Shown here one piece after another: positions 3,241-31,781 of a stretch of 34,206 bases of DNA. The DNA lies in contig JAUCBJ010004905.1 in NCBI GenBank assembly GCA_032718475.1, positions 1 through 34,206 on the forward strand, in the 5' to 3' direction. The position numbers and the translations under genes are program-made. Origin of the DNA: Nemertoderma westbladi. Lineage: Eukaryota; Animalia; Xenacoelomorpha. The notes under the pieces are model-generated. The model saw only the letters and a list, made by a program, of their open reading frames with translations, made no database searches and had not been told where the DNA came from. How positions within the stretch are numbered: position 1 is the first letter of the stretch; each line of letters begins with the position of its first letter.

Positions 3241-3254
3241 TACTATTTTAAAAC

Positions 3255-5590: not shown

Positions 5591-5750
5591 TATATAGAGC
5601 ACTATTTTGCAGTATTGCTGTATTGTACAGTTGTATGTACAGATATAGGTATAAAGCAGGTATTTTAGTACCGGCACCGGTACTGCTGTAGGCCTACTGT
5701 GTAGCCTACCATTTAAATACGGTAATATGGTAGGCCTACCGGTTGACCGG

Positions 5751-6022
5751 TTGTTTTGGTTAGAAAATCCCGCCTCTGAAACCTGCTCCTTTCCCTGATT
5801 TGGTAAAGTGACCGTTTATTGTTTTGGTTAGAAAGGCCCGCCTCTGTAACCTGCTCCTTTCCTTCATTTTGTAAAGTGACTGTTTATTGTTTTGGTTAGA
5901 AAATCCCGCCTCTGTAACCTGCCCCTTTCCCTTAATTATAGTTAAATGATCGTTTATTGTTTTGGTTAAAAATCCCGCCTCTGTAACCTGCTCCTTTCCC
6001 TCAATTAGATAAGTGATCGTTT
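5751..6022 (+). repeat. 68-70-bp tandem array, left half (4 units), interrupted by the LTR element
   Basis: Unit ttgttttggttagaaaatcccgcctctgtaacctgctcctttcc...aaagtgaccgttta starts at 5751, 5819, 5887 and 5957. Confidence 0.95.
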
Positions 6023-7102
6023 TGTAAAAGCTTTTGCGGACTTATCTAGTCATTTTCACGCAATGCGCAGAATACTCTAAAATAACCCTAAAATTGTTCA
6101 ACTACGTGCTGACGAAATCTGTCAGCTGATTCTTTGTATATGTGGAACTCTTTGTCCTGGCTTGTTGGGCCAATCAGAGCAATCTTCTCTGTTATACTAA
6201 CGGAGACCTACCTGAGAACTAGCGCAATGCATTATGGTTATTATTTTTCTGAGAATTAGATTCAGCTCAGAATTCTGTGCTTCTGTACAGAAGTTTCAGA
6301 CTTTAGCCCAAGGAACATCTGATGGCTTTAGTTATAAGAATGTAAATCTATTAACTACCTGCTGGTCATACACTTATTTCATATGACTCTCAATTCGTAC
6401 GACTGGAACTGGACTTGTAACACATATTGACTGTTCACCGCACTGTTTTACTTCTGTTTTATATTGTATTAATTGTTGTTTATATTAGTGGATGTTATAT
6501 TTGGAGAATACCGATAAATAATCATAATCCCCTCAATCTTATTGATTACTGAGGTAAGTGGAGAAAGAGTCTACCGGTAGCAACTGCGACTTAAATTATA
6601 GTGGTTTTGTGTGAATTAAATGCTATTTCATAATCCCTATGTGTGTCAGTTACAATCCTCCTTTTATATATGATCAAATTCAGTGACTGTCGGCAAATTA
6701 GTGTGAAGTCGTGTGAAGGTTAATAAAGCATCTCCTAAAGAATGCGCTATTTACGAAACTTTGTGGCCATCTAGTTGTGATTAGTATAAGTCATAACTCT
6801 GTTTTTATACTTAAAGCGCCACGTCCTAAAGGAACTGTTAATATTTCCCCGAAAGTAAATATAGTTGTCAGAGATTATATAGTAGCGATCAATCGAATAA
6901 TACAAAGTAGCTTACACCGCAATACTTCCTAAGGAACCCGAATCCAGTCTCCCTCACCGTGGGTCATACGCCGCGCACGGACTGGCTTCGGCAGATATAA
7001 CTTCAGTACACCAGGTAATTGGTAAGGGCTAAAGTCGATTCATAAACAAAAGGACAATTAAAATTGGCAGGTTAAACTGCTAAAGGTCTGAAAGCGCGAA
7101 CA
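6023..7102 (+). repeat. 5' LTR (1080 bp)
   Basis: Starts tgtaaaagcttttgcgga and ends aaagcgcgaaca. It matches 21129-22248 with about 23 substitutions and 3 indels (manual count). Confidence 0.97.
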
Positions 7103-7116: not shown

Positions 7117-8935
7117 ACTCTTTATTGCGCAGTAGGCAATAAATAGATTTTGTCTAATGTTCTGGTAGAACATTAATATATTTCATTCTTTATTGCTCAG
7201 TAGGCAATAAACCCAAAACGTACCGGTAGGGCGGTAAACTGTAGGCCTGATCCGAACCGGTACTTACAGGTACAACAGTATTATTTGATTGTGATATATT
7301 GTATATTAGTAGGCTGTTTAAGAGAGTAGGGACTGTACACCCCTTATTTCTTTTAGAGCTTACTTATTTCTGTCAGTTTTATTTATCTGTAAGTGTAATA
7401 TTGAGCAGAAGGCGTGTAAGCCTGCTCAGATTGTGTAAATAATTTGTAGGCCGGATTGTTGTCTAACTATTGTTAGGTCTGAGGCGATTGCAGTGTATGT
7501 AGAGTGTCTGTCCGATAAAGTGCTAGTTAGGAAGGTAGAGGCATCGAGTGCTGTAAGGTAAATCCTCCACGAAAGAATAAGTCGTACTACGTAGTTAGAA
7601 CGCCTACTAACTAACCATTTCGGAGTTTGCATATACTGTAGTTTATTTAGGCTTGACAGTAGTCTGCCAACATTTGGTCTGTATTTTGTTTGAATAGTCT
7701 GTACGGGTAGCCTAATATTTATAATTCAGAGTCAATGCAAGTATTCGCAACCTTCAACTCCCCAAGTTAATTCCTTACAGTAATTGTGCTTGTTATGCAT
7801 ACCGTTATAGGTAAATTAACCCTGGTACTACATCAGGGCTGCTTGGCGTAGGTAAAGACTGGTGATTTTGTGCTCCGGTCACTCCAGCAGATACCGTGGT
7901 TCTTTTGGCTGTTCACGTATATTTAACTGCTAGTTATTTGTTGTATAAGTACTTGTACCTAATTTAGGGTTTAGAGTACAGTGCTTTCCTGAAAGTAATA
8001 TAGTGTGTAGGCAGTATACTTGTGTTGTAATGTGGTTAATAGGTCCGTTAGCTCTGGTTGGCTTCGATAATTAACCTCTAGGTATAGGACACTCCGGGTA
8101 CATAACGTAGTACTTATAGTTTAAGACTATAAGTCGTCAGACGGTGGTATTTCCTTATCTGGACAATGCAACTTACTTACTACTACTTTATTGGTTTAAA
8201 ATACTGTAATTTCCTGTCAGTTTGTAAGAACCAGAAATTCTAACTCACTGTTAGTCTGGTTTGTAGATTTCTTGATAAATTACCCTAAAAAATTGTACGT
8301 GTAACTTGTTTACTGTTTATTTAGAGATTGTGTAATCTCAACCCGATTCGTAAGTAATTTGTAGTAATAAGTAACTTAGTTAAGTAGAATTATCAGTATT
8401 AGTGTCTAACAAGTAGCGCTCCACTGAGAGCGTTCAGCTTCTGTGTAGTGACTTCTTATCCAGAAATAATAACATTTATTTCAAATATTGTCAAAACCCA
8501 TTACGGGTATATATATATATTTATAAATTAATTCAATCAGATTTATAAATTAGTAGGCCTGTTATACATCATTTAGGTCTTAATATCAGTTGAACTACTG
8601 CTTAAATATCAGTAATAAAGTAAAAGGGAAGTAATCCCTAAAATTCAGAAAATCAGTTACTATTAAATAATTGACATTACCGGTATTTACGATAAGCTTA
8701 TTATATTTATATAAATTAGGTTAAACTTATATACTGGTATTCTGTGACTGATCCTAGTCTGTAATAATACTTATATATATACTATAAGTGTATACCGGTA
8801 TTTTAATATTAAATATATACCACGTTACACTGAGTAGCGATATCGGTAACTACTAGGTTGACAGTTGATACTGATTTTCCCTAGACTTGCTTCAACTGTC
8901 ATTATAGTAGTAGGCATTCAACTGTAAAATAAATT

Positions 8936-11350
8936 ATGTCTGATACAAAACAAACACTGTCAGATAGTCTCCTGGAAAGAACGATCTGTGACACAGATCA
9001 AAGTATAGAACATCTCAGACCGAAGTCTAAGTCCCCTCCTACTGTAAGAAAGGTTATCCCTACAGTAGTGGTATCGGACCCTAGGCTAGTAAAGCACCAT
9101 AGGTCTATTATAGGCACTAGGGCTCAAGTTAAGCGAGACCAAGAGATGGCTGCCAAACAACAACAGTACCCGAACCGAGAACTTATTTCCCAACTGCGTA
9201 GCAACTCTAGTTCCAACACTGAAGGGTTAACGCCCGAGATCGGAGCAAGGATGGAAGAAGCGGTTTATCCAGACCCACTTCTAATTCTTCCTGGGGCCGT
9301 ACTCACTAGAGTACTTATAGCTGTGGAGGAACATCAAGCGGATTGGATGAGAAATAAGAGATCGACCAGGGACAGTTATGCAGGATACCCGATGGAAGAA
9401 CTAAGGTCTATTGCAGAGACTCAATGGAACTTCCCCGGATCCGGAATCCCGTTTAACTTATCGGAAGCTGCCTGGGAAGACTTATACCGAATGGGGGTAG
9501 TAAGGATCACCCAAGATCCCGCTGTATGGAAGAGGTCAGCAGCAGGATATGTCCAGGGATTCTTCAACTCCTTGGAACGACTAGAAGAACATTTATTCCA
9601 ACAACCACAAGGACCTCAAGAGCAGGGAGAGCTGCTTTATCAAGTGAGAGAACGTATCTTGCAGATCAGATTAGTCCTTTCAGCCTTTGAGGAAGCCTCG
9701 AAGAGAAGCCAAGACACGTCGTTGCAAGTGGCTGTAAAGACTTGGTTCCAACGAGTGAATGTTAAGGTCCAGGGAACGACACAATGGAGGGTTCAGCTAA
9801 CTGAACACATAACCCACGGAGAATCAACAGATGCCACCTTTTCTCATGTGGAAGGCGAAGCGATATCCGAAAAACCTCAGAAGAAGGATGCTATTGACAT
9901 CTATCTGTCGGATTATCAACGATTTATAGGTGACAAAGATATAGGTTACCTAATTTACCTCCTGCGGTGAGAAGGGAACTAGCCAATGTAGACTTAAGTA
10001 ATCAAGGACCGACAGACCAAATTATGAGAGTAGAAAGACTCCCTACTATAGTAGATGAGCCCGAAATAATTAGGCCTGTTAACGAAGCCACTCCTTTGAT
10101 AGAGACCCCTTTACTTCCAGAACCTAACTCTAAATTCCCTTTGCACAGTACTAAACTACCTGTGCCCAGTAGACAACTGCCGGAATCCCAAACAGATCTG
10201 ATAATAATCCAAGAAATTTATATACCGATAATTCGATATTAAATAATACGATGGCTCAAGAAAGTTTTACACGTCAAATGGCTAGAACTGAAGCCCGTCA
10301 AGCGGTAAAAGTGGGAGAGGTCGTCAAGTTCAATGGAGATGAGATGAAATGGTTACCTTTTAATGAATATTATAAAGATAACATACAGAACTCCGTACTA
10401 TCCAACGGAGAGAAACTAAGATTCCTCATCGAGTGCTTGGAAGGACCTCCCAAGTTAATGGCGTTAAGGTTTATTGGACATCCGGACGGATTGAGACAAG
10501 TTTGGGATACACTAAACATCAGGTATGGTAACAGGACTAACATAGCTAGGTATCTGTATGCGAAATTAGTGGCGCCCCGAAAGTTTCTTAGCAGCGGGAT
10601 TATAGAGTTTTCCGATAAGATTCAGGATCCGATAGGATTCATTCTGTAGACAGCTAGACTGGTTAGGTAAGTCCCAGGAATACCAGAGTTCTATGGTTGT
10701 TGAGCCGTAGCCTCAACTTTGCCAAAGGGTTTAGTAGGTACTCGCTGGGACAAAAAGGTTCTCTATTTGATGGACCAACAACATAGAGACCCTACCATGG
10801 CTGATCTCATGTCGTTTTTAAACGGAGAGGTAAGATTACAGCTCTTAAAACAGTCTAGAGAGAAGACACCGGAAAGTAAGGTAAGTGAAAAACCCATTAC
10901 TAGGAGAAAGGTAACACCAGTGTGTTATACAGATGATGGCGAAAGCCAAACGTCATATGACGAGAACAGCGGCAAGGACACCGAAAGATCTTATTATGTC
11001 AACAACTATTAGGAAAGACGTAAGTAAATCTAAGTCTCGAACCAGTGACAGGAGAGAACAGGTAACAACTCCCCCTACATCTCCTAAGAGAATTCATGGA
11101 AGGAAGCCTGAAGAAAGAGCTAGCATACACAACACGATGCAGGTTAAGGCAAGTAACATCAAACCTAAGTGTGTATTGTGCGACGGGCCACATCGCTTGA
11201 GTGGGTGTGATGAATTCTTAAAGAAAACGCTGAAGGATAGACGTGATGTCATGTGGGATAAACGGTTGGGCTATAATTGCCTACAAAGAACCTGTTACTC
11301 GGACGCGAGGTGCGCTAAGTGCGGCGCGAAACATCATATTCTGCTGCACA
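8936..11350 (+). pseudogene. gag: Bel/Pao gag region, broken by stops and frameshifts
   Basis: DUF1759-like FNGDEMKWLPF..LSNGEKLRFLIECLEG..WDTLNIRYG (10251-10649). Bel/Pao zinc knuckles CVLCDGPHRLSGC, a degenerate YNCL, and CAKCGAKHHILLH. Confidence 0.9.
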
Positions 11351-11599
11351 CCGAATTTGACAGGACACGTACGAGTCAGGTAAGTGAGCCCGAACTACAT
11401 GTCCTATTCAGTGATGTGAACGACACTGACCACAGTTCAGAGATGGAAGGATTTTACACGGATGAATTCTCAGATGAAAATGAATCCTGTTATATGATTA
11501 ACACAACTGTGTATCGAGCACTTACGTATGAGACCGAAACGGAGGGAGAAGAACCCCTACTGTCTATTCCAGATCGACAGCTCTCTGGTAAAGCGCCAA

Positions 11600-13082
11600 C
11601 ATCATCTGTCGGTATCCGAGAGTTTCCCGTAGTGCAACTGAGAGTCCACAGGATAGGGAAGAGCTTAATAGTGAACGCCCTCCTTGACTCCGGCAGTACA
11701 GGCACTTTTATCGACAAAGACCTAGCCGAAGATATCTTTGCTGGTCAACCAAAGTTCCGAATCAAACTAAACCTTTCCGGAATTATGCAGGTTTGGAAAT
11801 CCACAGTATCAACAGATTACTATGTGGGATCATTGTCCACTCCCCAGGATGAACTAGGAGAAAATAGTGTAAGGTCAGTTAAGATGGTGGCGATAAAGAA
11901 CTTTGCTACTAGCCAAGTGGAGCCTTACAACTGGGATGAAGATCATTTTACCCAGCAATATAACATACCTAGTTTCAGTACCGATTATCCAGGGGTACAG
12001 ATATTGCTCGGCCAAAATGCGCACGAGGCACTTGAGACAATAGAAAAATGGCCTGCTCGACCACGACCACTCCAGACTTATGCGGGAAGAACAAGAGTAG
12101 GTTGGTACTTCACTGGTCCTTCCCATAGGACTTTGCAAGAAAGACTCAAGTCCATCAAGTGAATAAGTGGGAGGAAGATATAAGTGAAGAAGAAATTCCA
12201 GCTGAGGAAACTCCATACTCCTCAGATAACGACGACGTGAGTAACTTATATGACGAGGAAAATACCATTGATCTCCTCACTGAGAACCAAACTTGGTTAA
12301 ACCAAGCCAACTTATGTAATCTTATTAGGCAATATAGCGAACAATTGACGTATAACGATGAATTAAATGAAGTGGTAGAGCGATATAATAATAAAATACG
12401 CGATGAACATGCCGTACGATTCTTCACTCAAGAAGCCATAGAACCTAATTCCTACGACAAAGCATTATCGGTCGAGGAAGAGAGAGCCAAGCAGATTCAG
12501 GAAACGACCACACGTTATCTGAAAGATGAAGGTTGTTACGAGATTGGTTTGCTGTTCCGGCGGAGAGAACCCAGCTTCGTGAATAACCGACCTTTAGCGG
12601 AAAAGAGAATTGCGCAACTTCATCGTCGTTTGACGGCTAACGATCGAGCCAAGGAAATGTATAAAACTCAATTGAAGAAGTTTATAGACAAGGGATATGC
12701 GGAGCGAGTTCCGGAAGAAACACCCATAACGGAGAGAACGTATTATTTGACACATCATTACGTTCCCAAGCCCGGTAAACCGAACGAAGTCCGGGTAGTG
12801 TTTGATGGCTCCGCCCTTTATATGGGACAATCCCTAAATTCCGAACTATTGCCGGGACCCAACTTACTCTAATCTTTGTTGGGGATATTACTACGACTGC
12901 GGCAATATTCGATCGCCTTCGCTTCGGACATCGAAGGCATGTTTCTACAAGTCAAAGCAAGGGATCGAGATAGCCTACGATTTCTGTGGTGGCCTGAAAG
13001 AGACCTCAACCGAAAACCGGTGGAGTACTGGATGACCATCCAGGCTTTCGGGATCATCTCGAGCCCCTCGAACGCTAGATAC
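11600..13082 (+). pseudogene. pol: Aspartic protease and N-terminal half of reverse transcriptase; RT truncated by a deletion at about 13082
   Basis: ALLDSGS (Asp at 11686), VQILLGQN, YYLTHHYV, RVVFDGSA, SLNSELLPGPNLL*, SDIEGMFLQV, LRFLWW and FGIISSP. No YVDD motif follows. Confidence 0.92.
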
Positions 13083-15021
13083 TCCAGAATGGTTAGGTGG
13101 ACCCGATTTCCTGAGTAAAGAAGGGGAGGAATGGCCCCCTCATCTCACCACGGTGGAGATTAGACAAGCCAAGGGAGCAGAGAAAGTCAAACCTAAAACC
13201 CGGACGAGTAAATCAAAGTTATTTAAACCAGTGATAGATCTGTCTGTGCTACACACCTCCGGCGACGACGCTGTGGACCTAAACTCACCCATGGATGTTA
13301 CCCAAAATACAACTAAATCCGTTATAGAAATCAGGGAAAGAGACTGGAAATCTGGGACACCAGACGTCTCACAAGGACTCTCTCATCTCTTACAAAGAGC
13401 AATAGATCATTATAGCTCCTGGAATCGTCTTTGCAAGGCCGTTGTGTATTTGAAAAGATGTTTCCATCATCACTATTCCAGGACGAAGATCGCTAATGAT
13501 ACTGCTCTAGTAGTATCTGAAAAGGTCCATGCTACTAAAGACCTTCCCACTTATAGAATGTCTGATAGGTTCCTGACTGAGAAGATCAGTTACCAAGAAC
13601 ATGATGATAACAATAAGCAGATACTGAGACTCCTGCAATGTTACGAGGATTCCGATAAGTATTTCCTGTTGTTGAGAAATCCACAGATGCGCTTAAGGGA
13701 TCGTTTCTCTAGCACAATGATAGATGGGTTAATACGTGTCGGAGGGAGATTAACTAATGCTCCACTGTCCTTTGACACTAAGTTTCCCATACTCATTAGA
13801 AATCTTGAAATACAGATCAAGATGATTGTAGATGTTCACAGTAAGCTTTACCATACTGGTAGAGAACGAGTTCTTAGCGAAATTCGAACTCGCTATTATT
13901 TCCATAAGCCCCGTAGAGCTCTAAACCAAGTTCTTAGGAACTGTATACCCTGTAGGAAAACATTTAGTAGGCCTTTAACACAGCGAGAGGCAGAATTACC
14001 TAGGGAACAAGTAAGCTTTTATGAACCACCCTTTACTAATACTGGTGTGGATTTATTTGGCCCTATTGAAGTATATTGTGCTAGGACTATAGTCAAGCGA
14101 TGGTGCGTCATCTTTGTCTGTATGACTTGTAGAGCGATCCATCTAGATATGGTGAACGATCTATCTACCAACAGCTTCATACTGAGTTTACGCCGACAGA
14201 TCGCTCGTTTTGGGACTAGCAACACTATGAGATCTGACAAGGGAACAAATTTCATTGGTGCCAATAACGAGATCAAAGTTTATGTGAAGGATTGGAACCA
14301 AAGACAGGTGGACGATCAGCTAAGAGTAACAGCATCTAGCTGGACCTTCAACGCCGCCGACGCCCCTTGGTGGGGAGGAAGTTGAGAGAGACTCATACGA
14401 AGCGTGAAGACTGCATTTCACTTTATAGTGCCATGCCGCGCGTATCTCACTGACGAACTTTTGCGGATGTTAATGGAAGAAATCGCCGCCTATCTCAACG
14501 AGAGACCGCTCATGCCAGTCTCATCTAGTCCTGACTCCCTAGAAGCACTAACACCCGTGCATTTCCTACTAAAGAAACCTGTAGTCATGCTCCCGCAATC
14601 GGAAATAACAGACGGAGACGAATACTGCCGACAAACTTGGCAACTTATGCAGTTATTATCCCGTCATTTCGCTGACCATTTCGAAAAACATTATCTTCCT
14701 ACACTACAACTTCGAACAAAATGGTTTGCGCAGTAAGAAAACGTCAGCGCCGGAGACATGGGCCTTATCGTGGAATCAGATCTTCCCCGTAAGAGGTGGC
14801 AGACAGGTCGTATCATCGAGACTCATATTTCCGATGATGGTTTGGTGCGATCGGTAGAACTCGTCGTCATGCGATGTAACTTTAAGAAACCTGGAATTGT
14901 GTTCGAAACACAACAACTTAATCGCCCAGTTGGTCGTTTATGTTTACTGGAAAGAGACCAAGAGTTGTCCGGTAACTATGGAAGGCAAGAGACTCTTCCC
15001 ACGACCACCTCCCTAATCTAA
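13083..15021 (+). pseudogene. pol: Pol C-terminal part: linker, HHCC zinc finger, DDE integrase, DUF5641-like tail
   Basis: WLGGPDFL..WP at about 13090, GLIRVGGRL, H..LYHTG...CIPC, PFTNTGVDLFGP, RAIHLD, SDKGTNF, APWWGGS*ER (probably TGG>TGA at 14383-14385), YLPTLQLRTKW and DGLVRSV. Confidence 0.93.
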
Positions 15022-15632
15022 CAAACATCTAGGGACTCCTCAATGTAACAACGTTTGGAGTGGGTTATCTACATTATTTTTATTTTTTTTATTTTTATAT
15101 TTGTGTGTGTATTATTATGTAATTTTAATTATTATAATCGTTTTCTTTAATTTTATTTAGTAGAATAATATTTTAACGATTATTCAGTAGATTAGTGCAA
15201 TATATTCGTATTTTATTACTTAATTACTTAGTATAATATATTTCGTTTAATGGCGAGAAATAATTCATTTTCTCTTTCCTTACTGTCCGTATCATACTAT
15301 AAATACGTGACTACAGTAAGATGTAATGTCAGTACTAATTAAAGTACAATATACCGCCCCTACTATACTCAAGTATTATTGGTAAGTAGAGTATTAGGAA
15401 TGCAAAGTTCAGATCCTCTTGTCTCGGCTAAACCAAGCTCTGGGTAGACCTTGGAAACGACTTGCCTCTTCTCACTGACATTGCTTCTTGCAATATTGCT
15501 CTCATACCGTATCTTAAATAATACATATAGTAGAATGATGTCCATTCAACAGTAGCGTTGAAACTCAATACATTAACAAATACTATTAATATTATAATAT
15601 TATTAAATAAATCTGTTAATAAATCTTCAAAT

Positions 15633-15980
15633 AAATCTGTTAAACCCTTTGACCATCTGAAATTCTAGTCGATTAGGATATCGCGGCACCCACCGATATA
15701 CTTGAAAGACAAAATTCTAGAAACAGTGGTTAACGTCCCCAGACATGTTCTGGAATAAACCGGTGCCCATCCTAAATGTTAAATATTAAATATTTTATAA
15801 ATATCTACAACGTTTGTTATAACAAATGTTAAAATATGGAAAATTTATAAATCAAATCTGTTAAAAATTTTAGATCCTCTAAAATTCTAGTCGATTAAGA
15901 TATCGTAGTACTTACCGATACTCTTAAAAGACATCTGGAATTAAGGTTCCTAGTCTCCAGACATGTCCTGGAATAAAATT
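15633..15980 (+). repeat. Diverged two-copy tandem repeat (222-bp period) in the pol-ORF2 spacer
   Basis: aattctagtcgatta.gatatcg...ccgata...ccagacatgt.ctggaataaa, with starts at 15661 and 15883. Confidence 0.8.
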
Positions 15981-16798
15981 GTGTCTATTTAAATATCGAA
16001 TAATAAAATTCACGGGAATAAATTTTAAATTCATATCCTCTCATGAATTTGATAAATTGTCATTTTATACAATTTATAACATTCCCAAAATTCCATCAAT
16101 TAATAGATCATGGGAGCGGAGATTCGCCCTATCAAGTATATTAGTGTGAGAGAATCTCCAGTGTACAGTCAATAGCCGATAAAATTCATAAAATCATGTA
16201 TAAAGGGAATATTGACAATTAAAGAATCGCTATTAAATAGCATCCCAGATCTGTATGCATGAGAATTACTCTAATTCTACCGCTAGCTTTCCATAATGTC
16301 ACCATAGTAACAACCACGCTAGAATTAGAAGCGAGTTAAAGAACAATAGAAAGCTTGCCCCACTGAATACCATGCGGAATAAATAGCACCTTGCTAGTAT
16401 CTAGGGATACATAATAATAATGTGGCATTCAGGAAGGCATTTGACTAACGGACAAATGGCCCTAATTTGTACAAATTGTGGCAGGAATGTGGAATTTGTG
16501 TATTTATAGGTGAATGTTACTACTAAAGTGTGTTTACAGTAGCGAGTCGCAGTTGTGAAAGTTACCCTGCCTCTGTAGCAAGTACCTCCAGTATATCCAA
16601 GCCCTTGGGACGGACAGTGGAGTGACTCGCGCTGGTTATTGTTGTCGTTGTGTAGCTACTACGTTGGCGAGAGGCACAGCGACGACAGTACATCAGCGCT
16701 GAGGATCTCACGGTGTCCGGGGGCATAGAGGGGGAGGCAGCGACGACCGCTAGCCTGATTATTATTAACTATAATATCGATAAACTCATATAGCAGCT

Positions 16799-19700
16799 AT
16801 GACTGAGTTGATAGAAGATGATCTTGGTATCAGGGAGCGATATACCCTACCACTGCAAGCGTTTGTCGATAGTTTGATAAGCGGCGACGCTAGTCAACAT
16901 ACTACGGAAGACGATGGCCTTTATATCGAACCGCCAATGTCAAAGGAACAGCTCAAGCGTGAATTGGACTATTGGAAATTCACCGCTCGCTATATGCATC
17001 ATAATGGTACGTATATGGACTTCTTAACTAGTGGTCATCCTATTGATTTACACGATACGGACGATATAGATACCGAAAGGGAAATGATTCTCTTTAAATA
17101 TCATGCACAGTGGAGTCGGAATGATAAACTGAGAATTGAACATGAAAATTATATTCGAAACCGACTCGAAAGAGAAGATGTTGAAGAGCCGGGTAAACGC
17201 AGTGACTTCAACGAATATTTAAAATTCTTGAGAGAAACTTATCTCAATGTAGCCAGTCAACAAAATCTAGAAACTCGATATCCTCAAGGTATACATCATA
17301 ACCCTATGATAGAACTCAAACGGCTCTATTTTACTATGATGTATCTTACCGCCGATCGACCGCTACCTGTTGTACCGGATAGCTTCGAACAGATGGAGGA
17401 ATTTGTAAAACTGGAGAAAGATCACCAGCGTTTCCCCTACAAGACGTGTGTCTTTGGTATTACTGCGATGAATGCCCTAGACCCAACCATCAAACGGAAA
17501 GACGTAAACATCCGCGGAGACGTTGTGCTAAACACAGTTTTACTCGCTATACTTACGGGAGTTTTGAGCGTAACCTATTCGACGTATCACCTACGCTCGC
17601 TCGACTCAAACGCTCCTTAAATAAACCTATGATCAGAGTTCCGGAATACTTGGTCAGACCTCCTCATTCCCTAGTGCGACCTCAGACTCTTGATCCTAAT
17701 AGTATGACAGATCCTCGTGAACTGTACTCATTGTTCAAAGATCTAGTGTTACCCGAACAATTAGTCGGTGGCACTCCGGTTGTGGGCTCCCTAGATATTC
17801 GCCCATCATACCTAGCCGGATTGGGACGCGGACATCTAATATTGCCGTTCAACCCATATAATTGTCCCAGTTTAATTCCGATACAACCTGTCACCGAGGT
17901 GGAGGAAAGTGTTGTACGAAATGCGCTAGATACTATTCGGCAAAAGATCGGAAAAGGAACTTACGATTGTTTAGACAAACGTAAATTGCAACAACAAGTC
18001 CAAGCGGTAAAGGAATTGGCTTTACCTCAGTTTGATCGGGAAATCCAGAATCTTGAGGAAGATATCGAACTTGGACGAACCTACTCTCTACAAGAGTTCT
18101 TGGACGAATGCTTCCAACGACAAGCGGAGGAGAATCAGCTCGAGGAGAAGCACATCGAAATGGATGAGAGAGAGGAAGCAGCTTTAGCCCAACCAGAAGC
18201 TCAAATCCTTATGACGGATCTCTATTCCAAAACCATCATTCATCCTTCGATGGTTCCCCCTTTCGGAGATAAACTCTTCGCCATGGTACAACCCCAACCG
18301 GTTGATATCAACTTAAGATCTAGAGATTTTATCGCTGACGCTCCTATGTTACAACGTCCGCCAATCGAGGCCGCTCGTGTTGACGGTATACTCGTTGAAC
18401 CTCCGGACAATCGAGCGGATCTTGTCCGTCGTATGGTACACGAGGTCAACCTATGCGCTAGACCTTTACCGAACTCATTTTATGGGATCAAAGACCACCC
18501 CTATTATGTCAATTTAACTCAATATTATATGGTGAAACCGGAAGATCCTACACACAGTTTAAAGTTTCTACCATTGATAAATCCTCTTGATCTTGTTGAA
18601 CTCGAACAACTACAGAAACATTTAGACCAATTGATTAAGGTAAACTCATTCAGAAAACGTTATAATGTTTCAAGAATAGAAAAGGACATAATACCTCCGT
18701 ATAATCTCGATGGATTTATTAAAACTCGATTAGTCCAGTGGAATCTCGACGTATTATTCGAGGAAGAGAGAATACAGCGATACGGAAATGCAGATACTTA
18801 TACCACGCATTATCTGAAGTATAGCGATCTACCTAACGCAAGCGAACGTGCAACTTTATGACATCCAGTGGGTATGACCATAGAAAACGCCACCAAAGAG
18901 TGGAACGAAACTCTTAACGTTATTGAAATGTATAGAGTTGTCACTTACGATAATGAAGGTAGCGTTCCGGTTGGGGAACTGGGAACTACGCGAATGATAC
19001 ACATACGAGGACTAGCTGGTTCTACGCATGTATTTACTCGAGCGTGTTCCAGCGTGATCGATTATTCTTTTGAGACTCTCACAGAGATACAAAAGAAACT
19101 CCGACATGGACAATTCGAACTCGCGCAGCGTTATGTTACCGATACCGAGCACAAACCGGCCATGGGTATAGATGGATCTATGCTACCCCAGCCAGTGCTC
19201 GAGATGCTGTTTGACGAGAGAATCCTTAAAATCGGCTCAGCTGTTTATGGAGATCTCCAAAATGACTTCAGAAACATGGAGAATATCCCATATCCTTTCG
19301 TAGACACCCAGCTGATTGCACCATGGGCAGAAGGCCGAGGTTTCTTCCGAACTATGTATGCCAATACATCAAGCGGAATCAATAAAGTACAAAGAACCTC
19401 TATCGGACATCTTGCCTTCCAAGACTATGGATGGAATTTCAAAGTTGGAAATCCCGTCAGTTATCAACAAATATATGGAGACCATTATTCTCGATTATAT
19501 TTTGACGGACCATTAACCGCACCTGGAGTCGTCTATAGCTTTATGAGTGTTCCACTCCGTCCCTCATTAGCTATATACACTATCTTCAAGAACGCCGCAC
19601 TTGCCAGTTGGCTAGCCGATGTGTGCAGTCGCACTATACGCGCTCATCCCTTAGTGCTTGGAACCAAACTCGCCAAGCTAGATGAACACAATAAATTCAT

Positions 19701-21102
19701 CTGATTCGAATGCTTTAGGCGCTTTCTGACTCCGTTCCGCAATGTTGAAAGTCAGTTCAAGGACTGCGCTTTGTCTAAGCTCAGCTTAAGAGACTCAGCT
19801 GCTGAGAAGTTGGACAGCGCTGGATTCGCCATTTTTAAGGACGTTTGTACACAGAACCTACATTCATCTGTCATACAAAGAACCCGAATCCCCACAGGTT
19901 ATTCTATTATGGAAGTTCAAACAGTGGGTTCACTTGAAGAAACAGCTGCACCTATCTCAGCTATGCAAGTGGAAGAAGAACCAGTTTGCTTGGAGTCCGA
20001 GGAGACTCAACCCACAGCGCCCAGGAGCAGCGACAATGATTATGTGTTGGAATGGTATCAGGGTCCACAATGTCTTACGGCATATGATTATCGGCATGCC
20101 AATTACATTTCTAGGAAACGTTGCCGATTATGTGCATCACGAGACCACTTTACCCCGGTGGACTCCAGCGAACCCTGCTCCTACTTTAAAGATCAACCTA
20201 TTATGGAGATTTATTGTGCGTATTGTAGACTCAACAATCTACACATCTTCGCCGCCTGTCCTCAATTTATGACTCAATGTCACCATTGTCAGTACAAAGG
20301 ACACGCAAGTTTCGATTGCCCTTTCAACTGAGATCTGGAGAGCGTAGACGAAACAGTTACCCTGCGCTACATCAGAGCTTGGGAAGCTAACACAGATCTC
20401 CATTGCGAATCACGTCACCGATACTATCCAGGACGTGCGTATGAAGGAGTCTATGCATTTCGCCCATACCTCTTTGCATCCGTCGGACAAAATTCTCGCA
20501 TTCCCAGTTACGAACTGATGAAGCGTGTTGGTGAGAACATTTCCACTAAATATGTTCGCAAATATCTTAGGAATATTAACCCCAATAACCTGAATTCCTA
20601 TAACTTGATCAACTTCATCCATCAAGATCAGGAATACGGCGACTTGTTCATAAACTCGCATCCTGAATTACAAGAAATTCATAGATGACCCTATGAATAT
20701 AAAGCCAGAGAACGCGAATTAGAGAGAATAATTAAACCGCGGAAATTTCTCACTATACACGGTCAACCTACCGCTGTCGTACAAACAACCCATCAAGGAC
20801 CGGTAAGAGCTGCCGTCCTGAAACGAGCTCTAAAGGTTGTTAGACCTCGTTCCACCGATGCTGATATAGATCAACCGGGTACCTCGACCGGCGGATACAC
20901 CTACCATAATCCAAAACCTTCTGATGCAATCGTATTGCACCCTTCCCCCAGGAGTTATAGCCCTCCTGGTAAAGTGGCTCGCCCCAAAGAGAAAAAGACT
21001 CTCACTGGTCTCAAAAGGCTTCGTAAACGCCGTTCACGAAGAAGGACTAATAGTTTAGAGTATTTTTGTATTTTAGAAACTGTGATTTTTTATATTTTAT
21101 AG
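16799..21102 (+). pseudogene. Extra ORF2 of the LTR element, about 1430 codons when reconstructed: unknown N-terminal region, DEDDy 3'-5' exonuclease-like domain, three zinc knuckles, basic C-terminus
   Basis: ORFs 17446-18861, 18868-19704, 19771-20331 and the unlisted continuation to TAG 21100-21102 are one frame interrupted only by four TGA codons. ORF 16799-17620 joins through one -1 shift near 17530. Motifs VVTYDNEG, LPQPVLEMLFDERILKIGSAVYGDL, FVDTQ, SIGHLA, PLTAPGVVY, CHHCQYKGHASFDC and KRLRKRRSRRR. Confidence 0.8.
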
Positions 21103-21119
21103 ACTTTAATCCCATTTTC

Positions 21120-21128
21120 TGGGAGCGG
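21120..21128 (+). promoter_or_regulatory. Short polypurine tract
   Basis: tgggagcgg lies directly before the 3' LTR TG and is preceded by a T run. Confidence 0.65.
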
Positions 21129-22248
21129 TGTAAAAGCTTTTGCGGACATAACTAGTCATTTTCACACAATGCGCAGAATACTCTAAAATAGCCCTAAAAT
21201 TGTTCAACTACGCGTCGGAAAGAAATTAGAACCAAGATGACGAAATCTGTCAGCTGATTCTTTGTATACGTGGAACTCTTTGTCCTGGCTTGTTTGGCCA
21301 ATCAGAGCAATCTTCTCTGTTATACTAACGGAGACCTACCTGAGAACTAGCGCAATGCATTATGGTTATTATTTTTCTGAGAATTAGATTCAGCTCAGAA
21401 TTCTGTGCTTCTGTACAGAAGTTTCAGACTTTAGCCCAAGGAACATCTGATGGCTTTAGTTATAAGAACGTAAATCTATTAACTACCTGCTGGTCATACA
21501 CTTATTTCATATGACTCTCAATTCGTACAACTGGAACTGGACTTGTAACACATATTGACTGTTCACTGCACTGTTTTACTTCTGTTTTATATTGTATTAA
21601 TTGTTGTTTATATTAATGGATGTTATATTTGGAGAATACCGATAAATAATCATAAACCCCTCAATCTTATTGATTACTGAGGTAAGCGGAGAAAGAGTCT
21701 ACCGGTAGCAACTGCGACTTAAATTATAGTGGTTTTGTGTGAATTAAATGCTATTTCATAATCCCTACGTGTGTCAGTTGCAATCCTCCTTATATATGAT
21801 CAAATTCAGTGACGGTCGGCAAATTAGTGTGAAGTAGTGTAAAGTCGTGTGAAGTCGTGTGAAGGTTAATAGAGCATCTCCTAAAGAATGCACTATTTAC
21901 GAAACTGTGTGGCCATCTAGTTGTGATTAGTATAAGTCATAACTCTGTTTTTATACTTAAAGCGCCACGTCCTAAAGGAACTGTTAATATTTCCCCGAAA
22001 GTAAATATAGTTGTCAGAGATTATATAGTAGCGATCAATCGAATAATACAAAGTAGTTTGCACCGCAATACTTCCTAAAGAACCCGAATCCAGTCTCCCA
22101 CACCGTGGGTCATACGCCGCGCACGGACTGGCTTCGGCAGATGTAACTTCAGTACACCAGGTAATTGGTAAGGGCTAAAGTCGATTCATAAACAAAAGGA
22201 CAATTAAAATTGGCAGGTTAAACTGCTAAAGGTCTGAAAGCGCGAACA
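21129..22248 (+). repeat. 3' LTR (1120 bp)
   Basis: Direct repeat of 6023-7102 with +22, -2 and +20 nt indels; followed by the TSD cgttt. Confidence 0.97.
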
Positions 22249-22525
22249 CGTTTATTGTTTTGGTTAGGAAATCCCGCCTCTGTAACCTGCTCCTTTCTCT
22301 CAATTGGTAATTTTATCGTTTATTGTTTTAGTTAGAAAAGACCATCTATGTAACCTGCTCCTTTCCTTCATTTGGAAAAGTGATTGTTTATTGTTTTGGT
22401 TAGAAAATCCCACCTCTGTAACCTGCTCCTTTCCCTGATTTGGTAAAGTGACCGCGTTTATTGTTTTGGTTAGAAAGGCTAGCCTCTGTAACCTGCTCCT
22501 TTCCTTCATTTGGTAAAGTGACTGT
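22249..22525 (+). repeat. 68-70-bp tandem array, right half (4 units)
   Basis: Units start at 22255, 22323, 22391 and 22461. Removing the element and one TSD restores aagtgatcgtttattgttttggttag. Confidence 0.95.
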
Positions 22526-22584
22526 TAGAGTCTTTTACCACAGGCGCATATGGAAATCTATCTCATAGTCTATAAATCATGGAA

Positions 22585-22851
22585 TTTTGAATGTTTTGGA
22601 ACAGGCATAGTGAAACCAACTGTCCGACAGACCAGAAATCAACAAATTTTGAATGTTTTGGCATAGGCATGTTGAAATCAACTGTCTGACAGTCCAGAAA
22701 TCAGCAGTCTGACAGTTCGAAGAAATACCTTGATAAAAAGTCATTAAAGGACAACAAAAGTCATTAAAGGGACAACAAAAGTCATTATGCACAATTCGTA
22801 AAAAAAGGAGGACAAAAAAAGTCAAATAAAAGGACATAAAAAATCACTGCC
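22585..22851 (-). repeat. Inverted copy of the 3255-3433 repeat with an internal duplication of about 62 bp
   Basis: Ends aaaaaatcactgcc. ttttgaatgttttgg..aggcat..gaaa.caactgtc.gacag.ccagaaatca occurs twice. Confidence 0.85.
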
Positions 22852-24859
22852 ATTTAACTAGCTAAAAGGCATTTCAAATTTCTCGCCAAAGCTGTTACCA
22901 CTACATATACTTGTTTTGACTGTATGGTGTGTTTATAGCTGCACAAAAAGGAAAATGTAACTAAATATTGCAATTTCCGTTTAAAAATTTCAAATTTGCT
23001 CTCAAGCACGTCTTATAAAGTGTCAGATATTTCAAGAACTGATAACAAAAAACGGATTTCATTTTCAAATTCAGCGGAAAATTGTGATTCAGAAACAACA
23101 ACAAAATTTTTTTTGATTTTATGAACCCCCTGACCTGACATTCCCCTTAAGTGATTGGTGTCGATTCAGTATTCCTGTCAAGGGATTTATGATAGAACAT
23201 AAAATCGGCACCTAAAGTCTACAATGTCAGGAAGAAAACTAAATGCCTTTTCGGCAGCGAGAATTAACTTATAGTATCTGTTAGTCCAACTTAGGGCTGG
23301 GTTTAAGTAAAAACCGCCAACATCCACAGCCGACAATGACAAATATGAAACTGTAACCTGTACTCTTGACTCGTGTTTATTGCTATGTTTTTTTTTTGTT
23401 TTTTTTTATTATCCGGACTTTCGGCGGCTATATTTAAAATGGTCTGGCGATATTTAAAAATGTTAGGTTTACATTTACACGTTACAAATGATACAGTATG
23501 CGCCCACTGCGCGGAATAAAAGAGTCTGTCACAAGTGATGCTAAGCACGTTAGAGTAAAACGGTATGATAACGGTATAGTATATAACTGTATGGTATGTG
23601 ACCATGGAGCAAGTGGTAAATATCAGATCAGTTAAGATTATATAGGATAGGTATTACCATAAAATTAATGCACCAATCGATATGTGTTCATTAGTTCTAG
23701 TAAGGTGTGGGGATTCGAGAAAATGTTTATGATACATTTCCCAGGTAACCTGTTCCCAATTGACATGACATTTGTAATGCATACAGTATAATAGATGACT
23801 TTACATTTAGTACCCACATTGTCGTAGAGGATTTATTCCGCTTCCTTTTATTGGCTTATCTGGGTCACCACAGGGGTGAGCGAAGTTCCAAATGAATTCT
23901 TTCAAAGGAGTAGTAGGGCCTACTGTAGATAGACAGTTCTAATCTATGCTCAGTATAACTAAATGAGTATCAGTATCCCCTGGGGAGTATAGTTCCAGGT
24001 AAATTGCACTGGAACTAAGACGTCAGACATTGTGCATAAGCATAATTACTATAGCCAAACGACGAAGAAAACTTTTACAATTGACCTGGAAAAAAGCTAA
24101 TTTTTACGTGAGATTCTGTCTTACAAAGAAGCACTGTATAAGTGTAGAATTCAAGTCAATTCTGTTGCATATACAGTATTATACTTTCAACTCCAATGCA
24201 CACATTTGAATGACTCAAAATCACCTATAAATAAATTCTATCCGATAAAAAAATATTGCCATGTTGTTAATGTTTTTAGCAGTTATGGAAATTAAATTAA
24301 AATTATCAAGTATTTGATGTAACAATTTATAAAAAATAAATAAATAGCAAAAACTCAGAAAATGTAGGCCTAGTACTTAGGAGATATTCAAAACTAACTG
24401 TACAGTACCACTCATTGAGATCTTAATAATTTTTATTTAACTCTATTTGTCTCGGGGGGGGGGGGGGGGGGGGGGGTGTCACTTTAGAAATTTTTTTAAT
24501 TTATCTGTATCTTTGAGTGAGGTTTTTTTTCCCCTCTTTAGTAGGCCTACGTATATTATTCATATTTACAATAATGAAATAACTAATGAACAGGTTACAA
24601 TTTATCATTATGAATTCGGTTTGAACCCGAATTTCCAGCACAAGAGTGACAAACGAATCAACAAAAATCTAAAAAATAACAAATACCAGAATACTGTAGA
24701 ATAAAATATAGAACTCAATAAGTAACAAAATATACATCCACCGATTGTGGAAACCGTTGTTTGGGTAAACCGAGATTTCGTGGCTTTTCCTAAAATTTAA
24801 TGGGCTATGCAACAGAGCAAATGCCATTTACATTGCTAAGATAGCTTTCGTGCTATGGT

Positions 24860-25775: not shown

Positions 25776-26397
25776 TGTTTAATCTTAATCTGTTTGGTCT
25801 GGTTATATCTGTAGTGGTCTACTTACAGTATGTTTATTTCGCCTTTAATACATCTGTTTAGAAGCATTAAATACATTTAACATTTGTTTACCATTCCACA
25901 TATTTATAAGTACGACGCTCTGCTCCCCTTTATATAATTTCAACCTGCTAATCTGTCCTCATTTTCAATTAATTATACTGTATCTAAAGTAGGGCCTACT
26001 TGAATTCTAATGGTATTTATTTCTATTTCTATATGACTTTAAAAACCAAAACGTCATTTGTGTTATTTAGTTCTAATGGAGTTTAGTCCAAATGAAATCG
26101 TACCTTAGTTCTAAAGCAAACATTAGTTGTTATAATCAATGTGTCAGTGGTTATAAACATGAAACCATACAGGATACAATATCGTCTATAGCATGTTTGA
26201 TAGTACTAGTTTATAGATACGTGGGTTTTGTACACTTGCAACTTACTATGAATTATTTGGCTTATGCATTAGCTGGAGAAAGTCCCATCAAAATATAATT
26301 GGCGAATGTAATAATTCGTTGAATTTCCCTCCCATTTAATGCAAAATTATTATAAAACACAAGAATGTTATATTTGCGATGTAAACTATATAATATA

Positions 26398-26638
26398 CCC
26401 GTTGGACGTTGCCCGTTGGACGGTGCCCGTTAGACGGTGCCCGTTGGACGGTGCCCGTTGGACAGTGCCCGTTGGACGGTGCCCGTTGGACGACAGTGCC
26501 CGTTGGACGTTAGACGACAGTGCCCGTTGGACGTTGGACGACAGTGCCCGTTGGACGACAGTGCACGTTGGACGTTGGACGACAGTGCCCGTTGGACGGT
26601 GCCCGTTGGACGACAGTGCCCGTTGGACGGTGCCCGTT
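26398..26638 (+). repeat. GC-rich minisatellite, variant units of 7, 14 and 17 bp
   Basis: gtgcccgttggacg, gtgcccgttggacgaca and gttggac are repeated. Confidence 0.97.
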
Positions 26639-27407
26639 TCACGTTTTTATAATGTCTGCAGTACTGCAGTGCAGAAGGGCACCGCCCGTCAGCGTTCTAT
26701 GTTTACAATGTCGATTTTCTACGGCTTTGCATCTCAAAGATGTACAATTTTCCTTATTACCAGAATTTTGTCGTCCTTTCTCGTATTTTTCATACTCCCT
26801 TTTTGTTCCCAGTGGTGCTGCATCCCACCCCATCAGTGAGTACGCCTATGAACAGAGAACAGCAGAAAGTAACCAGCTGAAAAATGCAGGTAGATTATTT
26901 TCAGCCAATGATAAACATTTTCCTAGACTAATAATGCATATTAGGTTCGCGACCAGCATCCTTGGTAAACAATATAAAGTATAGGAAGGAACTCAATTAA
27001 GGAACTCTGTGGAACCAACTGAACTGCGCCTTGATTTTCAATTTAACTCTAATATAATTAAACGACATCGTTTCCGATTTTGTAATCAGATTTTATGAAT
27101 ACAAATAAATAATGCGGAATGTACAAAACTAATGTATCTTGAGTTAAATTATAAAGGGTTCATTCAATATCTTGTTTTTAAATATTAAAACTACCTCGTA
27201 TACTGGCTTAGGGTGTCAGTCAATAAAACCAGTTAATCTTCCTGAATTTATATAGGGATTTGTTTATTGACTTCTGTCAATTAGTTGGTAATAGTTGGTA
27301 TTGCTGTCAATTAAGGCTACACCTTCCTCTGAATAGCTAATCACCATTCATTGGCAACAAACTCCGGTAAAGTAAAAGTAAACTATAGTACAGTATATGT
27401 ACAATAT

Positions 27408-28060: not shown

Positions 28061-29398
28061 CTACATGTAAAATGCAGGGTTGTCTTCTCCATCCTCTTCA
28101 ACAACGTTTTTTTCCATTAGAGATGTCAGTTTCCGAGACAAACAATAGACACTTGTCCCGTCCCAAAAGTATTCTAAACATTCAATGATAGTCACCATAC
28201 TCATACCAACCCATAATCCCAAACATCCACCGATATTACTCAACAAATCCTGCCACTCGTACTTGGGTACTTCTCTTGTTGTTCGCCGTACTGTATCCTC
28301 AACAAATACGTTAACCTGCAACACATCCTCTGGCAAATTAAAGTATTCATCAATAATGTAATCCGACAAGTTATATTCTCCGAATTGCACTGAGTATTTG
28401 GCTATCTTGGGATACGCAGGCAAATTTGGAGGTTTCTTTAATTCGCGAGTCATCTTCTTGAAAAGATGCGACCGAATTGGGTCAGAAATTAGTCTGGAGA
28501 GATACCAGGAGAACGGCGTAGTGAGTACAGACAGAAGACTAGTTTCTCCCCCCAACTTTGGGTGGTAAACATTCTCTTGTAAAGGGTATCGAATGTCCGT
28601 TACTATATCGTAGTCAGTTATATTGCATCGAATAGGACAGTTAGTTTCTCCGCAGTCTAAATGATTTTCACTTTCTTCTAAAAACACCCGATAGCACAAT
28701 TCGTCTGCTGTCGAACATATTCTCCTATCGCCTGAGAATAATAATTCAGAAACGCAACCGCATTGTGAGTAGAGAATACTTTGTAAACATAATTGCTTGC
28801 AGGCTTCGAAAGAGTATATTACCGTAGTCTCGGGTATTTTAAAATTCTGACGTTGCTCATCTGTAAATGTCTGCAAACAGTTCGAATATGGATCCGGCTT
28901 TTTGATAAAGTCCGTGACTCCAATTCCCAGGGTTATGGTGTCATCTGTACTGTAATCTCTCCCGGTCACTCGAGGCACAACCATTGGTTTATAGTCACCA
29001 ATGATTATTCGGTACCCAATAACTGGACTTAACTGATCGATGTGCTCAAACTTATCTTTATGTAGAAAAAGTTTCAACCCTTTGCCTTTTGTTATCCAGG
29101 ATGGTCGGGGTGGATTGAATGTGTAGCAGTTGCCGTAGGTCTGATCACGAACTATTTTAAAGTCGCGAGTCATATTGCAATCTTGGTTATCGAATTCGCA
29201 CAATAACACTAAGTCCTCGAGATGATAGCCATATTTGTCGAGTTCGGCCGCATCCATGTTTCCCTGTAGAGGTGATTCGCCTTCACTATACTTAAAGATA
29301 TTCGGATAGCTATCAATACCTTCTCTGAGTTTTTCAACTTGTTCAATGTCGTTGGATGATGTACCTCCAATTTCTACGCAAAATAACTTGGCTTCAAC
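28061..29398 (-). CDS. DEG/ENaC (ASIC/degenerin-family) sodium channel subunit, last coding exon
   Basis: Acceptor ttttcgttttag|GTT at 29399/29398 adds 47 open codons before the listed ATG. Motifs LLCEFDNQDC, YGNCYTFN, GLKLFL, the Cys-rich thumb, and TM2 DLLSNIGGCLGLWVGMSMVTIIE with a GxS filter. Confidence 0.93.
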   Translation of the reverse strand, partial: VEAKLFCVEIGGTSSNDIEQVEKLREGIDSYPNIFKYSEGESPLQGNMDAAELDKYGYHLEDLVLLCEFDNQDCNMTRDFKIVRDQTYGNCYTFNPPRPSWITKGKGLKLFLHKDKFEHIDQLSPVIGYRIIIGDYKPMVVPRVTGRDYSTDDTITLGIGVTDFIKKPDPYSNCLQTFTDEQRQNFKIPETTVIYSFEACKQLCLQSILYSQCGCVSELLFSGDRRICSTADELCYRVFLEESENHLDCGETNCPIRCNITDYDIVTDIRYPLQENVYHPKLGGETSLLSVLTTPFSWYLSRLISDPIRSHLFKKMTRELKKPPNLPAYPKIAKYSVQFGEYNLSDYIIDEYFNLPEDVLQVNVFVEDTVRRTTREVPKYEWQDLLSNIGGCLGLWVGMSMVTIIECLEYFWDGTSVYCLSRKLTSLMEKNVVEEDGEDNPAFYM

Positions 29399-31740: not shown

Positions 31741-31781
31741 TTTAAAGTTTACTTGATAAGAACATCTAATATGTTGGACAT

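Follow-up and report, generated by a model that had tools for sequence, protein, structure and literature searches.

RNase D-like exonucleases of the DEDDy type have been described as third open reading frames (ORF3) in Juno and Vesta, two long terminal repeat (LTR) retrotransposons of bdelloid rotifers, and in Athena/Terminon elements (Rodriguez et al. 2017, PMC5408684). According to the available text of that paper, the rotifer ORFs were found by HHpred only, carry the acidic set DEED in place of DEDD, contain neither transmembrane (TM) segments nor coiled coils and are of unknown function; its authors stated that retrotransposons had not previously been reported to carry DEDDy exonucleases. 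The Athena/Terminon elements are Penelope-like, and Terminons were summarised by Arkhipova and Yushenova 2019 (PMC6431247, available part). An opinion paper from 2019, in its available part, treats the DnaQ-like exonuclease as a known LTR-element accessory domain and cites the rotifer work (PMC6338049). Among DNA transposons, the Dada elements have a DEDDy domain within their transposase (Kojima and Jurka 2013, PMC3706591, available text). Here, we analysed a window of 34,206 nucleotides from the xenacoelomorph Nemertoderma westbladi (assembly GCA_032718475.1, contig JAUCBJ010004905.1, positions 1 to 34,206 of the forward strand), which contains a 16,226-base LTR retrotransposon with Bel/Pao markers. 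The element carries a long ORF3 downstream of pol, and one segment of this frame, 18862-19704, is very probably a divergent homologue of the DEDDy (RNase D/WRN/PF01612-type) 3'-5' exonucleases.

Homology was assessed by profile-profile comparison. As a reference set, 50 domains of the PF01612 family were taken from 61 proteobacterial genomes; they came from RNase D, from small exonucleases and from one Pol I. This set was aligned and compared, using hhalign, with a two-row profile made of the window protein and P0002, a protein of 648 amino acids that is its only detected relative. The comparison returned a probability of 93.4%, an expectation value (E) of 2.6e-7 and a score of 51.6 over 100 columns, which extend from ExoI via ExoII as far as the strand with DTQ. 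Among 150 column shuffles the highest score was 23.2 (probability 4%), and the reversed alignment scored 14.3; because the observed score lies far above both controls, we consider the exonuclease homology to be real. Each of the two proteins alone matched the same 50 domains with a probability of about 72-75% and an E of about 3e-5 (3.3e-5 for the window protein). Searching NCBIfam with the window protein gave two matches (E 0.0017 and 0.012). Both were models of RNase D and paired residues 108-152 with profile positions 60-104/110. Against the PDB, the two-row profile found two sequences at E ≤ 10, one of which was RNase D (1yt3, E 1.9), matched at the ExoII-DTQ place, and a direct hhalign comparison with E. 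coli RNase D gave a probability of 61.6% (E 7.8e-5). The central claim of the first-pass annotation, that the retrotransposon encodes a DEDDy exonuclease homologue, is thus borne out by the hhalign match set against its shuffles, by the NCBIfam RNase D models and by E. coli RNase D.

Further leads, and leads only, came from a language-model atlas. The window protein had 29 of its 30 matches in cluster sets bearing PF01612, with a top score of 0.93 (169 of 256 shared features, below the 170 mark), and the top three matches of P0002 were PF01612 clusters (0.86, 0.77 and 0.77), the first combining PF01612 with zf-CCHC and the second being EXD1-like. EXD1-like proteins, the WRN exonuclease, Mut-7 and Nibbler are related members of this group. 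In PHROGs, a single weak 'exonuclease' family was matched (E 0.13, residues 6-82).

Residues of the domain are numbered from position 18862. All the motif strings quoted in the first-pass annotation were found in frame 1 of the plus strand and in the places it gave them (Table 1). D131 in the ExoII motif aligned securely with the ExoII aspartate, both that of RNase D and that of the 50-domain profile. For ExoI, two placements were obtained: VVTYDNEG, in which D30 and E32 form a DxE, and VIDYSFE (19054-19074), which offers D67 without a glutamate. MAFFT and hhalign both paired the IDVE of P0002 with VIDYS of the window, and VVTYDNEG as ExoI would need about 25-40 extra residues ahead of the ExoII helix. 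D30-N-E32 is trailed by an apparent hairpin (RMIHIRG / THVFT), and VVTYDNEG is plausibly favoured as ExoI on structural grounds, that is, by its succession of helix, DxE strand and beta hairpin. At ExoIII, the window reads PL-x3-L-x2-Y239-x3-K243, in a register taken from the BLASTP alignment to P0002 and from the place where the C-terminal part best fitted the family profile in local alignment. These two alignments moved ExoIII from YSFMS, where it had previously been placed, to IYTIFK (19573-19590). The fourth acidic residue is indeed missing from this copy, as had been noticed, and the residue concerned is K243 instead of one in YSFMS. The canonical Y-x3-D is absent here: this copy has Y-x3-K, and nearly all other copies compared as well as P0002 have Y-x3-E.

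An exhaustive phmmer search over 1.84 billion representatives returned P0002 as the sole match at E ≤ 0.001 (E 1.4e-5, 32% identity, residues 106-254), and BLASTP of the window domain against it gave E 2e-14 with 45/150 identities. The motifs IDVE (ExoI), KADL (ExoII) and LDTQ of P0002 are in register with those of the family, and its ExoIII, PL-x3-Q-x2-Y-x3-E, has the tyrosine and a glutamate for the aspartate. When 18862-21099 was read through and compared with P0002 by BLASTP, the exonuclease (E 2e-13) and a double zinc knuckle (E 2e-4, 13/43 identities) matched collinearly. Since the two matches are collinear, these two proteins, which are about 30% identical, have in common a predicted module in which a linker joins the exonuclease to CCHC knuckles. 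Word-seeded homologue searches among proteins of near lengths yielded no match at E ≤ 0.01 from 983 candidates for the window domain, P0002 itself alone from 7989 candidates for P0002, and no match at E ≤ 10 from 4868 candidates for the two-row profile. A scan of IMG/VR gave 291 pattern matches with none confirmed, and tblastn against phages gave no match. The JGI metagenomes contained a single 1.2-kb contig with a 25-residue match (52% identity) to the ExoII region of the window; positions 644-1088 of this contig, L001, encode an ordinary-looking exonuclease (LDAES, then FKIGSAIKGDL) in two frames, with an intron or frameshift.

The other copies of the element were compared as contigs from DNA sequencing runs of one organism (X1, X2, X3 and X5) that cover ORF3. 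The family is very high-copy: run X1 had 15,848 assembled contigs on ORF3 at 80-99% identity, with 1745 at 99% or above, 4559 at 95-99%, 6687 at 90-95% and 2857 below 90%. Within the domain (18900-19720), 40 of 63 sites were listed, each differing in at least 40% of the other copies. Among these 40 single-site differences, which were picked by support, 25 were synonymous, as opposed to 11.2 +/- 2.7 expected by random placement of the same base changes, and none of 1000 random trials reached 25. Counted by codon, there were 22 synonymous and 14 non-synonymous differences, and the three codon positions held 13, 5 and 22 of them. This synonymous excess shows, at the level of the codons compared, that purifying selection has acted on the frame of the domain while the family diversified. 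No difference among the listed sites fell in the codons of D30, E32 or D131, and codon 31 varied synonymously only.

The codon of K243 has another first base in 38 X1 contigs (depth 14265/14326) and in 13 X3 contigs (58640/58640), and together with a frequent third-base difference it reads as glutamate in nearly all other copies compared. Because nearly all other copies encode glutamate there, the loss of the fourth acid is, on these contigs, private to this copy. The proposed search for the ExoIII aspartate in the wider family hence found an acidic residue in the other copies, in the form of glutamate and not of aspartate. In some copies, an internal deletion connects 18160 with about 20889-20903, or 18584 with about 20636-20641; in such copies the exonuclease and knuckle parts are lost and both ends of ORF3 are kept. 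Depth over 19829-20843 was about ten times below that of the rest of ORF3.

ORF3 as a whole lies inside the LTR pair, between the end of pol (15021) and the 3' LTR (21129), from which it is separated by 26 bases with an adjoining purine-rich tract. Upstream of the domain, about 690 codons gave no meaningful Pfam match; downstream of the knuckles the translation ends in a basic tail (lysine plus arginine fraction 0.21). No membrane-spanning segment was found in any piece of ORF3 (top 19-residue hydropathy 1.17), and no Pfam match of ORF3 was to a viral glycoprotein family. With neither a membrane-like hydrophobic stretch nor such a family match, the predicted ORF3 product is not env-like.

In this copy, ORF3 changes frame near 17402 and is interrupted by in-frame TGA codons at 18859, 19702, 20329 and 20686; the exonuclease-like segment is the third of its six pieces. 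At the frame-change site, position 17402, 14 X1 contigs, with about half of the depth, show a one-base length difference. The first in-frame stop is absent from all covering contigs (15 in X1, 9 in X2, 16 in X3 and 3 in X5), and the second is a sense codon in one contig each of X1 and X3. Along with the lysine at ExoIII, the four stops and the frame change, the truncated pol and the 5.9% divergence of the LTRs are marks of decay. Of the stop triplets that the window contains, 28% are TGA; this is the triplet at each of the four in-frame stops of ORF3, whose terminator is TAG. An altered code with TGA as sense was rejected on three grounds: an in-frame TAA interrupts the DUF5641 match of pol, other copies do not share the first ORF3 stop, and a sense codon replaces the second stop in one contig in each of two runs.

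The limits of the element were set by its two LTRs, which both start with TGT and end with ACA and are 94.1% identical over 1122 columns (BLASTN of the window against itself). An array of 68-base tandem repeats surrounds the element on both flanks (5683-6022 and 22249-22526). The gag-pol region was scanned with Pfam in a decayed plus-strand reading in which stops were read as X. DUF1759, DUF5641 and the integrase H2C2 domain presumably mark a Bel/Pao polyprotein, and we take the motifs at 12789-12992 to be those of a reverse transcriptase (RT) from the patterns usual in Bel/Pao elements. Translation of this copy gave the order protease motif, N-terminal RT motifs and integrase along pol. In none of the plus-strand frames of 8901-15103 did Pfam match an RT palm or an RNase H at E ≤ 0.01, and at about 12990-13075 the frame with the N-terminal RT motifs runs almost straight into the pre-integrase segment. 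An internal stretch of pol has probably been deleted from this copy near 13040-13075, with a seeming loss of about 1.5 kb. The 1.76-kb spacer between pol and ORF3 contains no plus-strand ORF of at least 80 codons, and the purine-rich tract GGGAGCGG is likely to be the polypurine tract. By its gag, pol and integrase markers, rather than by an RT tree, the element is assigned to the Bel/Pao type. The earlier view that the exonuclease-like domain sits within an LTR retrotransposon with Bel/Pao markers is confirmed by the LTR pair, the target-site duplication, DUF1759, Integrase_H2C2 and DUF5641.

Table 1. Features of the Bel/Pao-type element and of the exonuclease-like domain in the N. westbladi window
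Feature	Position	Strand	Evidence or remark
Target-site duplication, left copy	6018..6022	+	CGTTT; same 5 bases flank both LTRs
5' LTR, TG...CA ends	6023..7102	+	BLASTN self-match to 21129-22248
gag region, Pfam DUF1759	10329..10577	+	29.3 bits, cut-off 25.4
gag CCHC-like knuckle CVLCDGPHRLSGC	11170..11208	+	Read from translation
Aspartic protease motif LLDSGSTGTF	11680..11709	+	Translation; weak Asp_protease_2 match, E 0.011
Presumed N-terminal RT motifs VRVVFDGSA ... LRFLWW	12789..12992	+	Translation
Integrase_H2C2, integrase zinc-binding domain	13819..13962	+	29.7 bits, cut-off 25.5
DUF5641, C-terminal part of pol, across one in-frame stop	14635..14943	+	E 1.7e-18, 67.1 bits, cut-off 23.1
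AT-rich non-coding spacer, pol to ORF3	15022..16783	+	G+C fraction 0.30; small repeats
ORF3 region, about 1,440 codons	16784..21102	+	Frame 2 to about 17402, then frame 1; final TAG 21100
DEDDy-type exonuclease-like domain	18862..19704	+	Frame 1, stop-to-stop ORF, 280 codons; profile matches
Candidate ExoI VVTYDNEG	18937..18960	+	D30 at 18949, E32 at 18955
ExoII core LPQPVLEMLFDERILKIGSAVYGDL ... FVDTQ	19183..19311	+	D131 at 19252; aligned to RNase D positions 60-110
IGSAVYGDL	19231-19257	+	Holds D131, 19252
FVDTQ	19297-19311	+	
SIGHLA	19399-19416	+	
YSFMS	19534-19548	+	
ExoIII by register, IYTIFKN	19573..19593	+	Y239 at 19576-19578, K243 at 19588-19590
Two zinc knuckles, CX2CX5HX4C and CX2CX4HX4C	20215..20319	+	20215-20259 and 20278-20319
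Short spacer ending in purine-rich tract GGGAGCGG	21103..21128	+	Adjoins 3' LTR
3' LTR	21129..22248	+	BLASTN self-match to 6023-7102
Target-site duplication, right copy	22249..22253	+	CGTTT

Elsewhere in the window, two long open frames on the minus strand (28061-29398, E 1.4e-44, and 30235-31794, E 2.7e-18) match PF00858, the family of amiloride-sensitive sodium channels; they resemble two large exons of a single DEG/ENaC gene, pointing to an animal host. Other retroelements are represented by two RT fragments that match RVT_1, at 2-811 (plus strand, E 1.5e-5) and 2046-3242 (minus strand, E 1e-9); one of these also has DUF6451. At 26398-26656 lies a degenerate tandem array spaced at about 24 bases (GTGCCCGTTGGACG...); the open frames that contain it (26315-26984) match nothing in Pfam. 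Inverted repeats pair 3251-3434 with 22671-22855 (about 185 bases, 93.5%) and 4298-4581 with 5052-5346 (about 300 bases, 87%), and 1125-1743 holds a 304-base tandem duplication (98.7%); these probably represent further small repeats on the flanks of the element.

Compared with the elements described previously, the N. westbladi locus resembles Juno and Vesta in having an RNase D-like DEDDy ORF downstream of pol, in the interval between pol and the 3' LTR. Like the rotifer ORFs in the available text of Rodriguez et al. 2017 (PMC5408684), it required sensitive profile methods for detection, has no TM or coiled-coil features of env and has no known function, and the acidic set is variant in both, DEED in that text and probably D-E-D-E here. 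This likeness is one of description. Unlike the rotifer clades, the element described here carries Bel/Pao markers, and unlike the rotifer ORFs its ORF3 spans about 1,440 codons, with some 690 unexplained codons upstream of the domain and CCHC knuckles downstream. Copy number also differs, being very high here as opposed to 1-2 full copies in the rotifer families, as given in the available text (PMC5408684). DEDDy ORF3s in LTR elements are thus known from rotifers, and what is new here, as judged from the markers, is a second LTR-element type in another superfamily; also new with respect to the rotifer case are the much larger ORF, the CCHC knuckles and a very abundant family with apparent coding constraint. 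A full-text search, in which most subscription journals and Repbase lay outside the coverage, found no report of a DEDDy domain in Bel/Pao, and the search count gives 0 occurrences of the word 'exonuclease' for "BEL/Pao retrotransposons in metazoan genomes" (PMC3118150). The first-pass annotation had tentatively mentioned RNase D-like domains in some nematode Cer elements; a full-text search, over titles and the openings of abstracts, found none in Cer elements, and the precedent is that of the bdelloid rotifer elements.

Among cellular enzymes, the resemblance is to RNase D (PF01612, DNA_pol_A_exo1; E. coli rnd, 1yt3), with which the aspartate of the ExoII helix and the DTQ strand align residue for residue, and which has the same motif order of ExoI, ExoII and ExoIII with its tyrosine. 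The domain differs from RNase D in the absence of HRDC domains, in the ExoIII acid, which is glutamate in the family and lysine in this copy, and in about 25-40 extra residues that separate the ExoII helix from the first sheet. The eukaryotic atlas cluster with PF01612 and zf-CCHC (mostly Euglenozoa) combines exonuclease and knuckles as P0002 does, although it is a lead that comes with neither an alignment nor an E. As in Dada, a DEDDy exonuclease of a mobile element shares its protein with a CCHC motif (PMC3706591, available text). The Dada domain is thought there to process the 3' ends made in transposition. Unlike the ORF3 domain, which has its own retroelement ORF, the Dada domain is described in that text as embedded in the DDE transposase of a DNA transposon and as having all four DEDD residues.

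From these data, we favour by a small measure a reading in which ORF3 contains a DEDDy homologue that is active and trims the 3' ends of the element. In intact copies, the domain would act as a metal-dependent 3'-5' exonuclease, which we judge fairly probable; the zinc knuckles and the basic tail would hold the protein on single-stranded RNA or DNA, and the exonuclease would trim, within the replication complex, the 3' ends of RNA or complementary DNA (cDNA) that belongs to the element itself. That the enzyme acts in the element's own replication is a more tentative proposal. Primer maturation, proofreading and counter-silencing are the possible roles that the first-pass annotation had put forward. 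The DnaQ fold, the catalytic activity, the substrate and the role are each features that we infer.

Several observations weigh against this reading. The window protein did not reach the PF01612 gathering score in Pfam, where it had no match at E ≤ 1, and P0002 matched PF01612 in the same place with 11.9 bits (E 0.2), below the cut-off of 23.6; of the profile support that had been looked for in the first place, the Pfam part failed and the homology part was obtained with controls. A phmmer search of the PDB gave nine matches at E ≤ 10 with no exonuclease among them. Significant similarity is confined to the part from ExoI to DTQ. Within that part, the two ExoI placements scored equally in hhalign (51.7 and 51.6), and in pairwise Smith-Waterman comparisons 291/500 and 397/500 shuffles reached the observed scores of the two placements; the DxE that the earlier annotation saw in VVTYDNEG is present, and its assignment to ExoI is matched by that of VIDYSFE. 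The ExoIII part alone scored 13.0 in hhalign, within the range of 100 shuffles (top 18.8), and its register consequently rests on order and pattern and not on statistics. AlphaFold2 models were unusable, with a mean predicted local distance difference test score (pLDDT) of 29.8 for the window domain (two-row alignment) and 27.2 for P0002. The synonymous excess carries the caveat that the 40 listed sites, of 63, were picked by support. As for the copy in the window, it is predicted to be inactive because of the lysine at the ExoIII acid position and the four in-frame stops.

Among other explanations, the domain might have kept the exonuclease fold as a catalytically dead module that, jointly with the zinc knuckles, binds or carries RNA of the element. 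Such modules exist in EXD1, Maelstrom and Egalitarian, and the strong divergence of the domain, which stays below the Pfam threshold, the change of the ExoIII aspartate to glutamate in the family and in P0002, the uncertain placement of ExoI in the window and the EXD1-like cluster that came second in the atlas for P0002 (0.77, a lead only) would all fit. The same possibility is raised for the rotifer ORFs in the available text of Rodriguez et al. (PMC5408684). We consider it unlikely: acids are kept at ExoII, at ExoIII and at the candidate ExoI in the majority of the family and in a relative with 30% identity, the ExoIII tyrosine is kept too, and binding alone gives no reason to keep these residues. 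At the other extreme, a chance order of motifs in an ORF unrelated to exonucleases could be suspected from the lack of a Pfam match for the window protein, from the PDB phmmer matches without an exonuclease and from three word-seeded searches that yielded no named relative. This is barely credible, and we deem it already refuted by the profile score of 51.6, as opposed to maxima of 23.2 in 150 shuffles and 14.3 on reversal, by independent libraries that hit RNase D at the same residues and by the PF01612 leads obtained with two proteins that are about 30% identical.

An active exonuclease could also serve in counter-defence, trimming or degrading those host PIWI-interacting RNAs (piRNAs), small interfering RNAs (siRNAs) or precursors of them that are directed against the element; this would help to account for its very high copy number. 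The extreme abundance of the family (the 15,848 X1 contigs on ORF3), the purifying selection on the frame and the fact that the cellular relatives Mut-7, Nibbler and EXD1 act on small RNAs speak for this role; it seems rather improbable, given that zinc knuckles of the nucleocapsid type suggest that the nucleic acid bound is that of the element itself, and that none of the six runs covering the region is on record as RNA. Less probable again is the combined proposal that a Bel/Pao lineage gained an active fusion of DEDDy domain and knuckles independently of the rotifer elements and used it against small-RNA silencing. If this combined proposal were true, it would explain the thousands of copies, and ORF3 would be the first gene with which an animal retrotransposon counters silencing by means of a nuclease. 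Finally, ORF3 might be foreign cargo that has no function for the element, either a captured fragment of a host gene or a nested mobile-element insertion, as the 1.76-kb AT-rich non-coding spacer between pol and ORF3 and the isolation of P0002, the sole relative, which is known without genomic context, might suggest. This we regard as very improbable: ORF3 stops 26 bases short of the 3' LTR, beside the purine-rich tract, its region is repeated at depths like those of the rest of ORF3, deletion derivatives join its two ends, the synonymous excess indicates selection while the family spread, and no trace of a nested insertion, in the form of an internal repeat or duplication, was seen.

Accessory enzymes are rare in retrotransposons, and in the searched literature the only other case of a DEDDy domain in LTR elements is that of the low-copy bdelloid rotifer families. 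A second occurrence, in a different architecture, suggests that a 3'-end nuclease may be of recurrent advantage to LTR elements. Evolutionary analysis can draw on the thousands of natural copies of the family, and biochemistry on P0002 as a natural intact relative. The case also indicates that large ORFs in the "env position" of Bel/Pao elements should not be presumed to encode envelope proteins.

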